Below, piece by piece: positions 57,155 to 62,451 of a DNA stretch of 64,000 nucleotides. The notes under the pieces were generated by a model that worked only from the letters and a program-made list of their open reading frames with translations, ran no database searches and had not been told where the DNA came from. Origin of the DNA: a virus; the IMG/VR virus record IMGVR_UViG_3300036785_000296, positions 10,005-74,004 of that record; one strand, written 5' to 3'. Both the position numbers and the translations under genes were made by a program. How positions within the stretch are numbered: the first letter of the stretch is position 1; each line of letters begins with the position of its first letter.

Positions 57155-57346
57155 ATGGCCAGGAAACCACTGAGCGACGAGGAGAAGTACAAGCGAGCCT
57201 ATGACGGCTTCGACCTCAGTGACGACGACTTGGAGGGGGACGACCCCGACGACGCCGAGATGGATCGGTACATCAAGAGCGTGCAGGACGGCACCTACAA
57301 GCCCGAGGAAGACGCCGACCTGATCGAGCCGAAGAAGCCCGCCTAG
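57155..57346 (+). CDS. Small acidic protein, candidate antitoxin of the zeta-like kinase
   Basis: 21/63 Asp/Glu; convergent with zeta gene, stops share CTAG. Confidence 0.6.
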   Translation: MARKPLSDEEKYKRAYDGFDLSDDDLEGDDPDDAEMDRYIKSVQDGTYKPEEDADLIEPKKPA

Positions 57347-58671
57347 AAGTTGCCGCCGCGCTCGATGAGCTTCGGCGGCGTGTCACGCGGGACATCGTTG
57401 TCCCAGGCCGACCAAGTGTCGGCGATCTGGGTCAGCTCCTCGAAGTTCTTCTCGTTGTCCACGTTCTCCAGAATGATGTCGGGATCGACGTAGCGTCCGC
57501 GCAACGACGGATCGCCGCCCTCCTTCGCCGCCTTGATGCCGGGGCTGAAGCGCCGGTCGATGGCGCGCTGAGCCGCCTTCAGCCTGGGCAGATGCATGTA
57601 GTGCGCGTTGACCTTGTAGCCCGCCCTCTTGAAGGCGTTCCCCTTGGCCATGACGCCCTTGCGGGTCTTCATCGTGGCGTCGAGCACGACGTTCAGCTTG
57701 TGCCGCCTAGCGAACCTCAACACACGGTCGAGGATGTCGCTCGACTCCTCGTGAACCTCCCAGGCGTTGTCGCCGGTGTACTCCGGCAGCATGTGCTTGA
57801 TCACGTCGGCGTCGAGCACCAGCGCGTGCTGGCTGTCGTAGAGCTTGTCCTTGAACCACGACTTGCCCGAGCCGCCCCGGCCGCCGAGCATCGTGAACTC
57901 CGGCTGCTGACCCGGCAGAGGCGTGGCGCGGCTGATCGCTTCGGGACTGAGCAGGCCCTCGTAGAACTTGGTCTGGCCGGGGTGCTCGCTGTCGATGCCG
58001 CGCCGGCCCTTCTTCATGATCGCCCGTTGCAGATGCCTGCGATCCCTGGTGTAGGCGCGCTTGGTCGCCGGGTCGTGGTACTTGGCCTGGGTGTCGCCCC
58101 GCATCTTGTCCCTCTTGATGTGCGCCCGCGTCTCGTTCAGCTCCGCGATCTGCGACGCTGGCGTCGTCGCGGCAACCTGCTCGCTGGTCAGGCTCGGATC
58201 GTCACGCAGGCTGTTCAGCCGCGATGTCGCGCCGCTTGAGGGGCCATGCACGAAGGGATGGCCAGCGAGGCTCAGCGGCACCCAGTGCGTCGCGGGCGGC
58301 GCCTGCGGCCCGGTCGAAATGCCGTGGACGTGGATGTGGGTCGCGCCGCCCGTGCGCTTGCCGATGGGCTGCTCGAAGATCGCCTGCTCGCCGCCCTTGC
58401 GCCAACTCGGGTAGGGGTGGAAGCCAGCGGCGTGCTCCTCGGCCTCCTCCTCTTCCATCAGCGCCCGCTCCTCTTCGGCGTACTCCTGCGCGCCTGCCCC
58501 GGCCCTGCCAGCGCTCGTCAGCTTGGCGTAGAACCCCCTGCCCTGCGCCTGGGTCGGCCCGCCGCCGGCGCCCTTCGTCCACTCGCCGCCGCCGGGGCCC
58601 TTACCCTTCCGGGGTTCGCTTGGGTCGTAGTCCGCCGTCAGGTGGATGTGGACGTTCCGACGCCTCCCCAT
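57343..58671 (-). CDS. Zeta-toxin-like P-loop kinase with N-terminal tag
   Basis: GGRGGSGKS, LDAD.IK, HEES, VVLDAT, R..RYV, DN motifs; GGAGG RBS before ATG 58671. Confidence 0.8.
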   Translation of the reverse strand: MGRRRNVHIHLTADYDPSEPRKGKGPGGGEWTKGAGGGPTQAQGRGFYAKLTSAGRAGAGAQEYAEEERALMEEEEAEEHAAGFHPYPSWRKGGEQAIFEQPIGKRTGGATHIHVHGISTGPQAPPATHWVPLSLAGHPFVHGPSSGATSRLNSLRDDPSLTSEQVAATTPASQIAELNETRAHIKRDKMRGDTQAKYHDPATKRAYTRDRRHLQRAIMKKGRRGIDSEHPGQTKFYEGLLSPEAISRATPLPGQQPEFTMLGGRGGSGKSWFKDKLYDSQHALVLDADVIKHMLPEYTGDNAWEVHEESSDILDRVLRFARRHKLNVVLDATMKTRKGVMAKGNAFKRAGYKVNAHYMHLPRLKAAQRAIDRRFSPGIKAAKEGGDPSLRGRYVDPDIILENVDNEKNFEELTQIADTWSAWDNDVPRDTPPKLIERGGNF

Positions 58672-61700: not shown

Positions 61701-62451
61701 GCGCGCTGGTCATCGGCGGCAACTCGCGGACGTTCGGGCTCGCGAAGGTCTCGCCGCCAGCGCCGCTGGTGAACTCCCCGCCGCCCGGCCCCCTGGCCCT
61801 GCGCGGGTGCTGGGCCTCGACCCACACATGCTGGTCGTCGTGCGTGGCAGCGCCCAGGTGGCTGAGCGCGACCTCGCGGATCACCTCGCCGCCGATCCGC
61901 CAGCCGGAGTCATCGAAGCTGTTGTAGCCGCGCGCCTTCAGCGCCGCCCTGACCTCCTTCAGCGGGATCGAGGCCAGGAGCTGCGCGTCGTAGCCGCCCT
62001 TGCCGAAGGAGAGCGAGATCGCGCACGGCTTCGATGGCCCGCGCGCGCGGAAGCCGACGCCCGGCTCGAACCCGCCGCCGCGATGGGCGATCATCGGCTT
62101 GTACGGGCCGACCGGCTTCCTGATCGTCGCCGTGAAGACATTGATGTGGCTACCCGAGCCGCCGACGCCCTGCGGCGAGTCGAAGTCGTCCACATGCGCC
62201 AGATGCTCGGCGACGCCGTAGCTGTTCCCCGTATTGCGCTCGGTCAGGTGGCCTTCGCCCTCGGACCCCAGGCGGAACATCAGGAATGGCTTGCCCGGCT
62301 CCGGCACGCCATCCAACTCCGGCGGCACCAGCTTGCGGGTGGCCTCGCCGCTGCGCGCTTTCAGCAGCTCGCCCGCCCACTTGCCGCCCGGATCGCGCGC
62401 CTCGCCAGGATCGAAGCCCGCGTCGACGTGCAGGAAGACCCGCCCGCTCAT
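58792..62451 (-). CDS. Polyvalent multi-effector protein (tag-delimited modules: ART-like?, SAM-lyase-like, HhH glycosylase-like, zincin metallopeptidase)
   Basis: Repeated ExxHPR..G.F tags; GAWKDGAE..QQKAVL; WY..GPKV..F..IDRH..QAVTW; HEFGH..SGYA..E..AE. Confidence 0.75.
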   Translation of the reverse strand: MSGRVFLHVDAGFDPGEARDPGGKWAGELLKARSGEATRKLVPPELDGVPEPGKPFLMFRLGSEGEGHLTERNTGNSYGVAEHLAHVDDFDSPQGVGGSGSHINVFTATIRKPVGPYKPMIAHRGGGFEPGVGFRARGPSKPCAISLSFGKGGYDAQLLASIPLKEVRAALKARGYNSFDDSGWRIGGEVIREVALSHLGAATHDDQHVWVEAQHPRRARGPGGGEFTSGAGGETFASPNVRELPPMTSAHAMATAQAQIASRRHKLFQAAAEDVDLTVGISNKSEKSAIGAWKDGAESTTVMIAPAATPEQLRLSAAMKGWLGQQKAVLSFAANPAGKGIMYSGLATGSLDDIHRALLGNGLENHTLVPTANGAMVYIADTDGSLAQGVATYARSHKAKFRATPGDAEFIGAEHYEGTSDAEQRAEGRKAYEALIAAAGDRVGPAEWGRLRDRWAKALAETQDRAVRQAELSGQRLFHFHVGDQEVFVEAEHPRQIGSHFPGRFAPKGTGGQLSGVHITTPHEGPTTHVEVHPPAPKPTAPWTLEHGDPTGKSSWLAVAQEAAEKAVAAYKTQHPKSPAKGVGVRVDIERAMAAAAAAESWKTWYEDHRPLARELFGKQEPQFEKALAIASINNAPKQNVVVGVDLMTYLLSGGQFPDLPKGVSAVRWPTPPEFEKEYGYKLLPAWLVQLNNLQHGLPISGPKVSEFDKALSGDPTGTPIDRHMGRFLFEGYEGSGVSDVQHKVGKAIILAWAKQMRWEPRELQAVTWAASLAAQGKKTSNFRDELLAKAGAIRAFLGKHPEITLDALAAMYQPKGYVGLAKLAETYENLAGLLTLFETIHDRLGENPRPEDVAKLVGLELPTHDAQVYLHVHQGDAWEEREHPRKAKGPGGGEFTVKGSGSFGGGPTIHVHTEPEKLTPAAEEAEFNRRSERAERWQKSYEAKHRAEHEAFEQAVVEPKSELRRAGYLVRWVPVAAREWLGADDTPPKDPARMMAAARGFDMAVGVLRSKGLGALADKIKEEIGVAYSSLRAQGGATSFGAGEATQDLDQGVVMETVNNGEGDQFILINANSKPAQAHGVHAFTPMMAVEMSKMKDATPEQLASYEMRASAIHEFGHVLDILSETTMTATLGRELERELTGAWGENWTRHAGSWLQSNVSGYAATKPQEATAELFYMMVTRGVDALPKPLQKWGQYWFDLAKAEHLPPVRKIMADWE

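Follow-up and report, generated by a model that had tools for sequence, protein, structure and literature searches.

A composite peptide tag on a portal-linked polyvalent protein and a zeta-like kinase resembles motifs of the head protease-scaffold and of the capsid propeptide in a DUF2213-type phage

In this work we analyzed a 64,000-nucleotide (nt) stretch of viral DNA, hereafter the window, which covers bases 10005-74004 of the 74,004-nt contig IMGVR_UViG_3300036785_000296. The contig ends overlap by approximately 126 nt (a terminal direct repeat at genome positions 1-126 and 73879-74004), hence the assembly is circularly closed and corresponds to a phage genome of about 73.9 kb with ~68% GC. 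The portal gene crosses the junction, and its stop codon is overlapped by the start of a gene encoding a large protein of 1219 amino acids (aa), a polyvalent protein made of four modules. This gene is followed by another that encodes a 444-aa zeta-toxin-like P-loop kinase, and between the two there is neither a promoter-like nor a terminator-like site. A short conserved peptide, which we call the tag, precedes each of the four modules and is also found close to the N-terminus of the kinase (Table 1).

The tag has three parts: a T-x-D tripeptide, a strand with alternating histidines (h-H-h-H-h), and a junction motif of the form (E)HPR...GGGE[FW]T.G. The presence of a peptide at the module boundaries and at the start of the kinase had been reported in an initial annotation of this DNA, which stressed the junction motif; the T-x-D and the His strand were contained in the strings given there and were not singled out, so that both are added by the present analysis. 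A core regular expression, [FYW][DENVS][PEA].[EQ]H?[PA]R.{1,9}G[EKRQ][FW][TAGS], has exactly five matches when all six frames of the window are translated, namely the five copies previously located, and gives no match in 100 codon shuffles of the window. Given that the expression was written from these same copies, independent support has to come from other proteins. Every tag carries an alternating-His strand, either in a regular form (VHIHL, THIHVH, TIHVH, YLHVH, FHFHV) or in a degenerate one (FLHVD, HVWVE, THVEVH), and the internal tags open with T-[HQ]-D. The position of the degenerate strand of tag 1 is occupied by a canonical IVHVH in the relative P0003. Among the 76 genes called in the window, the strict His-strand motif appears six times, three in the large protein, two in the kinase and one in the head protease-scaffold protein, as compared with a mean of 0.15 in shuffled sequences. 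The second strand of the kinase nearly matches the consensus G-[DE]-T-H-I-H-[IV]-H-x-G of the protease family.

The DNA copies of the tag are pairwise only 65-77% identical; this value rules out a recent DNA duplication as their origin, and the conservation of the peptide in spite of it indicates that selection acts on the peptide. The module boundaries were also located without reference to the tags, from the breakpoints of homology to mosaic relatives, and all three internal tags fall on them. In an AlphaFold model of the segment that comprises tag 2, module 2 and tag 3, the module is globular (aa 232-470, predicted local distance difference test (pLDDT) >90), and the tags lie outside of it with pLDDT values below 70.

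Table 1. Positions in the window of the tagged genes, their tags and modules, and the head genes related to them.
Feature	Position	Strand	Basis or remark
1219-aa polyvalent protein, tag 1-module 1-tag 2-module 2-tag 3-module 3-tag 4-module 4	58792..62451	-	open reading frame (ORF) and module comparison
Tag 1, aa 4-26: degenerate His strand VFLHV, then DAGFDPGEARDPGGKW	62374..62442	-	motif scan
Module 1, aa 27-202	61846..62373	-	at other positions in P0002, P0004, P0005
Tag 2, aa 203-232: THD, strand HVWVE, then AQHPRRARGPGGGEFTSG	61756..61845	-	motif scan; pLDDT 50-68
Module 2, aa 233-461, widespread alpha+beta module	61069..61755	-	AlphaFold pLDDT >90
Tag 3, aa 462-535: TQD, strands LFHFHV and EVFVEA, EHPRQIGSHFPGRFAPKG, strands VHITT and THVEVH	60847..61068	-	
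Module 3, aa 536-863	59863..60846	-	weak DUF7178 match, PF23802 E 4e-4, below curated cut-off
Tag 4, aa 864-914: THD, strand YLHVH, QGDAWEEREHPRKAKGPGGGEFTVKG, Gly run, strand TIHVH	59710..59862	-	
Module 4, aa 915-1219, zincin-like metallopeptidase	58795..59709	-	HEFGHVLD, aa 1115-1122 (nt 59086-59109)
444-aa zeta-toxin-like P-loop kinase with N-terminal leader and tag	57343..58677	-	PF06414
Leader and tag of the kinase, aa 1-36: NVHIHL, TAD, then YDPSEPRKGKGPGGGEWTKG	58570..58677	-	
Second His strand of the kinase, GGATHIHVHGI, aa 110-120	58318..58350	-	
Portal gene	62448..64000, continuing over the contig ends	-	PF06381 Phage_portal_3, E 1e-86
MuF-like head morphogenesis gene, separate, without tag	43856..44623	-	PF04233, E 6e-14; phrog_324
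DUF2213 head maturation protease fused to scaffold	41667..43250	-	PF09979, E 1e-46
Strand of the protease-scaffold, DQHIHIHLPGG, aa 234-244	42519-42551	-	motif scan
Major capsid protein	40014..41111	-	PF09950, E 1e-76
End of the capsid propeptide, ...IIRARTRD, aa 32-39	40995-41018	-	frame conservation

The initial annotation placed an enzyme-like domain after each tag, and this is clear for module 4 and for the kinase only; no activity is assigned to modules 1-3. The HEFGHVLD sequence of module 4 is an HExxH motif with Asp at +3, and the nearest Atlas clusters of this module are the zincin peptidases M90, ATLF and M48 (scores 0.91-0.94). No Pfam metallopeptidase model matched module 4, and the assignment as a zincin-like peptidase comes from the motif together with this language-model lead. 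In the kinase, the Zeta_toxin/AAA_33 domain (PF06414, E 2.5e-19) spans aa 254-408 (nt 57454-57918) and its Walker A sequence GGRGGSGKS is intact; the protein also matches a PHROG described as minor head protein. For module 1 there is a weak Atlas lead to ART-PolyVal (score 0.86), and module 3 is homologous to the DUF7178 proteins P0002 and P0010. Module 2 is represented by 772 cluster representatives among 1.84 billion proteins. The structural comparison of the inter-tag segments that had been suggested was run on this module, and by two methods the best matches were phage S-adenosylmethionine (SAM) lyases, both weak (6zm9_A, Z 7.4; 8bb1_E, Foldseek probability 0.99, E 6e-3), with no match at E <=1e-3 or Z >=8. 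From the predicted fold this likeness is a possible lead to an anti-restriction function, and it lies below the level of kinship. A sequence search of the PDB with modules 2 and 4 gave no match. Downstream of the kinase gene there is a convergent ORF on the plus strand (57155-57346) that overlaps its stop by 4 nt; it encodes an acidic protein of 63 aa without a Pfam match, which may act in immunity or as a DNA mimic.

Polyvalent proteins of phages were described by Iyer, Burroughs, Anand, de Souza and Aravind in 2017 (PMC5512222), who reported a widespread phage-type metallopeptidase with HExxH and Asp at +3 and predicted that these proteins are packaged, processed and injected. As in those proteins, the 1219-aa product is a large mosaic chain of unrelated domains encoded beside portal and terminase genes, with a zincin-like metallopeptidase as hub and with LPD domains in its relatives; in contrast to them, it has no fusion to MuF, portal or ArdC-N. 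On account of its mosaic multi-domain organization, its portal-terminase setting and its zincin hallmark, it is a phage-type polyvalent protein. A word match of PMC5512222 retrieved no junction peptide, no leader and no link to motifs belonging to the head protease.

The proposal that the locus is a portal-linked set of exchangeable modules agrees with what is observed in the relatives P0002-P0011, in which the modules are permuted, fused or split; P0002-P0010 bear the same kind of tag at their module joints. In the IMG/VR locus L001, which is 81% identical, the last module together with tag 4 is a separate gene (P0011, where the tag reads EATRDAQVYLHVH) and the zeta gene follows it, whereas in P0008 the zeta kinase module is fused to module 2. 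The tag itself is portable: in P0003 modules 1 and 2 are in the same order and the 30-aa cassette of tag 2 is absent from between them, and in other places the tag heads unrelated enzymes. A tblastn search with the 1219-aa protein and with the tag 2-module 2-tag 3 segment against 50,697 records of cultured phages gave no match, a locus scan with the large protein alone returned one locus only, a word-index search with the leader of the kinase (aa 1-45) returned only 4 proteins, and P0101 was not found in viral contigs.

The junction motif has a much wider distribution than the locus. In the best 155 of the 772 module 2 representatives 216 junction motifs were counted, in three forms: [FY][DN]P.[EQ][PA]RD..G[RK]W[TS].GGG, KHPRGQPEN.GQF and EQER.PAGSPEGG.F. 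In 76 of 136 relatives a motif precedes module 2 at a distance of no more than 40 aa, as compared with ~7% expected from its density, and in 50 of the 155 proteins the first 60 residues contain one. The core sequence emphasized in the initial annotation is thus conserved at the joints, but it is not special to this locus; from these sequence counts, phage polyvalent proteins commonly have the (E)HPR...GGGE[FW] core at their junctions. By word match, no such motif is mentioned in PMC5512222 or PMC5576092. In 80 IMG/VR loci surrounding related proteases (see below) the strict generic expression gave no match, and only looser HPR..NG.F variants were detected, placed after leaders. The scaffold part of the protease-scaffold (aa ~368-395, positions 42050-42130, minus strand) contains two copies of LGKGPFG.K; close relatives conserve them, and they bear a faint resemblance to the KGPGGGEFT.KG of the tag.

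The His strand, on the other hand, leads to the head protease. The protease-scaffold encoded in the window carries DQHIHIHLPGG in its linker, and in four relatives of 86% identity this island is invariant within a linker rich in insertions and deletions. Across the DUF2213 family, 85 of 120 homologues, which reach down to ~35% identity, have a strand of the form G-[DE]-[TQ]-H-[IV]-H-[IV]-H-x-G at this place of the linker. All of 119 sequences share H89, S144 and H168 in the protease domain, whose best Foldseek matches are herpesvirus proteases and T4 gp21, all of them weak (E 0.017-0.03).

The same kind of strand is found as an N-terminal leader on other proteins encoded near these proteases. 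The survey comprised the 80 IMG/VR loci mentioned above and considered ORFs on the strand of the protease, with inferred start codons; 16 non-redundant ORFs open with M-x(1-3)-H-[IV]-H-[IV]-H. Ten of these leader ORFs were scanned against Pfam and three gave clear matches, to topoisomerase IB, an exoenzyme-type ADP-ribosyltransferase and a NUDIX hydrolase. An HPR..G.F tag follows the leader in L008, L027, L075 and L088, with the HPR..NG.F form in the first three. In phage WC36-2 the ORF that immediately precedes the protease gene opens with MARHIHVHFYTGDAGEWKEGDHPRAENGQFGSGG, that is, a leader and an HPR..NGQF tag, and continues with LPD3, a domain of polyvalent proteins. The occurrence of leaders co-varies with the type of protease: of the non-redundant loci, 11 of the 41 that encode a protease with the His strand have leaders, as compared with 1 (a dubious case) of the 35 that encode a protease without it, with 2 and 2 background matches on the minus strand (Fisher p = 0.004, a statistic that ignores shared ancestry). 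In agreement with this, no leaders were found in three cultured phages with a protease that has no His strand. In the genome analyzed here the leader bearers are the zeta protein, the large protein and a protein with an Acb2/Tad1 hairpin domain encoded outside of the window (genome 6880-7326, minus strand; L092:181-627(-); PF24729, E 3e-15). The latter, whose gene sits between the terminase and portal genes, belongs to a type of anti-CBASS/Thoeris sponge and has an N-terminal extension of ~80 aa; its start probably reads MSLPDDLPITHVHVDG, with which it would carry a His-strand leader.

A separate group of proteins has a His strand at the opposite end. These are proteins of 393-636 aa encoded ~8-10 kb downstream of the protease that end in a conserved QKT[DE][IV]HVHG... 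motif (L009 18727-20595, L013 11454-12632, L020 18234-20141, L028 19867-21321).

The T-x-D part of the tag has a counterpart in the capsid protein. Conservation of the capsid gene's reading frame extends beyond the usual MTFD start in the upstream direction, and it yields an N-terminal propeptide that ends in ...IIRARTRD, right before the predicted mature N-terminus, and is followed by NLMTFDARTIDSTG. The propeptide is kept in frame in 66 non-redundant relatives, all of which have T-x-D and 40 of which have [TS][RK]D. In the leaders, [TSV][RK]D is found at most 16 aa past the strand in 8 of 16, as compared with 2.3% of background windows, and most of the remaining leaders have an Asp directly after the strand. 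At the places where the window has THD, TQD or TAD, TRD is found in relatives (P0011, cited above; P0002, GGTRDHAQSFLHVHV; P0283, GATRDAGWETEPRK), and the zeta relatives P0012 and P0282 read HIH[LV]TRDYDP (HIHLTRDYDP and HIHVTRDYDP). The protease family has a near-invariant AFKA[RK]D-E just past the protease domain, and RARD is present at aa 205-208 of the protease-scaffold of the window. These comparisons are suggestive of T-x-D as a candidate cleavage motif of the head protease. The E217 paper reports only that its capsid protein is not visible over the first 65 residues, and in the literature on DUF2213 and DUF2184 we found nothing relevant.

The explanation that we favour, and that we consider fairly probable from the comparison of sequences, is a system similar to the capsid targeting sequence (CTS) of T4, by which cargo would be loaded into the capsid and processed by the head protease. 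The head cargo encoded right after the portal would be the four-module polyvalent protein and the zeta-like kinase, with the composite tag in front of each module or protein. The amphipathic alternating-His strand would imitate the strand in the linker of the protease-scaffold, and given this imitation we propose that the cargo joins the binding partner of that strand in the assembling procapsid, being taken up together with the scaffold core. The adjacent T-x-D or T-R-D would imitate the end of the capsid propeptide; the head protease would trim the leaders and may cut the polyprotein into its modules. The (E)HPR...GGGE[FW] core would be a generic flexible joint that came with each module, and it might serve as a second docking site, a hinge or a cut site. 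Finally, the cargo would leave with the DNA at infection. A capsid-targeting or maturation role of the tag had already been put forward in the initial annotation, and it gains comparative support from the motifs shared with the protease-scaffold and the capsid propeptide, two links that were absent from it, and from the co-variation with the type of protease. A broader proposition, which we advance tentatively, is that DUF2213-type phages use a portable address code formed by a scaffold-mimicking His strand and the T-R-D of the capsid propeptide, able to load and trim any enzyme in the head and chainable in polyproteins via HPR...G.F.

Several observations weigh against this explanation. The sites in the window are T-H-D, T-Q-D and T-H-D in the internal tags and HIHL-TAD in the kinase, and not T-R-D, and T-x-D is so short that it easily arises by chance. 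Since the capsid protein is devoid of a His strand, this element is no general cleavage site; approximately one fourth of the protease homologues have a non-His strand of the LVIEVK type or no strand, and in the AlphaFold model of the protease-scaffold its own strand is not docked in cis (pLDDT ~42-50). Tag 2 has no counterpart in P0003, where it is thus dispensable, and close relatives have no tag before module 2; the junction motif is also widespread without His strands, and its role may therefore differ. In the leader survey, the inferred ORF starts and the shared ancestry of the loci reduce the weight of the counts.

It is unlikely that the tags are mere flexible linkers or recombination joints, i.e. 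scars of cassette shuffling that allow modules to be swapped and take no part in capsid loading or in processing. Their predicted flexibility, the presence of tag 2 as an insertion or deletion relative to P0003, the shuffling of modules exactly at the tags, the GC-rich microhomology of up to 17 nt between the DNA copies, and the abundance of the generic motif in mosaic proteins would all be consistent with such scars. However, the peptide is conserved at the low DNA identity mentioned above, the same strand is kept in the single-copy protease-scaffold across 35-88% identity, and the leaders stand right at the N-terminus of enzymes that have a single domain and hence need no joint, and they co-vary with the type of protease. 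A different proposal for the same peptides, that they are recognition or cleavage sites of the zincin-like peptidase of module 4, which would cut the polyprotein before packaging or after injection, seems to us quite unlikely. It has in its favour the HEFGHVLD and other peptidase-like features of the module, the self-processing by the metallopeptidase proposed for polyvalent proteins by Iyer et al. 2017 (PMC5512222), and the arrangement in L001, where a gene of its own, with a tag, encodes the peptidase next to the presumed substrates. Nonetheless, none of the leader-tagged single enzymes of the protease loci that were scanned with Pfam has a peptidase domain, a scan that covered these enzymes and not their neighbour genes; no cleavage motif for the metallopeptidase is defined in PMC5512222 or PMC5576092; and the tag elements have their counterparts in motifs of the head protease-scaffold and of the capsid propeptide, a match that is indicative of the head protease.

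The remaining alternatives concern only parts of the system. The kinase and the convergent acidic ORF could form a pair similar to a toxin-antitoxin system, foreign to the virion and with the tag as an incidental trait, given that the Zeta_toxin domain is apparently intact and that the small, very acidic ORF overlaps the kinase stop on the opposite strand. This is very unlikely, since no gene for an epsilon-type antitoxin is found upstream on the same strand, where the polyvalent gene is located instead; the kinase shares the leader and tag of the polyvalent protein, has in addition a second strand of the protease type, and in P0008 its module is fused to module 2; its gene comes after those of the portal and of the polyvalent protein, and no promoter-like site intervenes; and zeta domains occur in large phage proteins annotated as minor head proteins. 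One zeta-containing head protein of this kind, gp030 of cyanophage PSS2, has no tags. Alternatively, the alternating-His strands could bind metal (Zn or Ni) and in this way regulate or stabilize the proteins, instead of being address labels; three histidines lie on one face of the strand, and the paired strands of some tags could form a His clasp. We regard this as extremely unlikely because in about one fifth of the protease homologues the same position is taken by an amphipathic strand of the non-His type (LVIEVK, HVTINVH), which indicates that the strand is what is conserved, rather than the metal ligands.

The favoured T4-like loading of head cargo can be compared with the systems described in other phages. 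In T4, the CTS is present on IPI-III and Alt and is removed by the prohead protease gp21, and DarB of P1 has an N-terminal targeting signal of 30 residues (PMC9024508). The likeness consists of a short N-terminal leader on unrelated cargo and, in the case of T4, of a candidate cleavage motif common to the cargo and the capsid precursor, which is deduced here from sequence alone; the cargo of T4 and P1 acts on the host after injection, a likeness that for the present proteins is predicted. The sequences are nevertheless unrelated, the leader described here copies a strand of the protease-scaffold, and the tag recurs inside a polyprotein, where it is joined to a second, generic motif. With the MuF polymorphic toxins of temperate phages (Jamet et al. 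2017; PMC5576092) the tagged proteins would share the association with the head and the swappable toxic or enzymatic domains; in those toxins MuF is an N-terminal carrier (PMC5576092), whereas neither of the tagged proteins has a MuF match and MuF is encoded by a separate, untagged gene ~12.7 kb from the tagged locus. The kinase resembles Zeta and PezT in its Zeta_toxin P-loop domain with Walker A and D-x-D region, and differs from them by the absence of an epsilon antitoxin, by the tag for head cargo at the N-terminus, by an N-terminal extension of 250 aa and by being fused, in some relatives, to module 2. Other short portable peptides that suffice to place a protein in an HK97-fold shell are the C-terminal tail of the HK97 protease gp4 and the cargo-loading peptides of encapsulins; these are C-terminal and bind the shell protein, whereas the tags described here are N-terminal or internal.

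To our knowledge, how head proteins are chosen for packing and injection is known in detail mainly for T4, with the signal also mapped for DarB of P1, and polyvalent proteins, which are very common, had their module marks and cutting hitherto undefined. Targeting leaders (T4, P1 DarB), a prohead-protease site next to them (T4) and polyvalent proteins as such are already known; the locus adds family-wide evidence for the strand of the protease, the co-variation and the link to the capsid propeptide. In the literature we came across no account of the tag, nor of how it mimics the protease-scaffold and the capsid propeptide or is chained within polyproteins. If the broader address code were correct, injected effectors such as kinases, ADP-ribosyltransferases, NUDIX hydrolases, topoisomerase IB and Acb2-type sponges would be predictable from sequence alone, so that hypothetical proteins of head regions would become predicted injected effectors (e.g. 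the zeta kinase or the anti-CBASS/Thoeris sponge); cargo loading would be open to engineering, with a tag to place foreign proteins in capsids; and a first candidate cleavage rule would be available for the DUF2213 protease family.

Regarding the genomic setting, the phage has a contractile tail and its head genes are of the type with a DUF1073 portal, a DUF2213 protease-scaffold and a PF09950 capsid. A likely terminase gene is located upstream of the portal on the circular genome. Past ~10 kb of small genes on the plus strand, the remainder of the head and tail genes resumes on the minus strand in the order MuF, GIY-YIG endonuclease, DUF2213 protease-scaffold, cement protein, PF09950 capsid, and sheath and baseplate genes. 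Directly upstream of MuF, in the position usually occupied by the portal, there is a gene for an Ala/Gly/Thr-rich protein of 524 aa (44626-46200, minus strand), with no PHROG match and only a sub-threshold Pfam match. The gene between MuF and the head protease (43247-43843, minus strand) resembles GIY-YIG/NUMOD3 homing endonucleases. The portal itself has a long C-terminal extension of low complexity, rich in Pro and Gln, which comprises aa ~320-514 of the part encoded in the window (62448-63300, minus strand).

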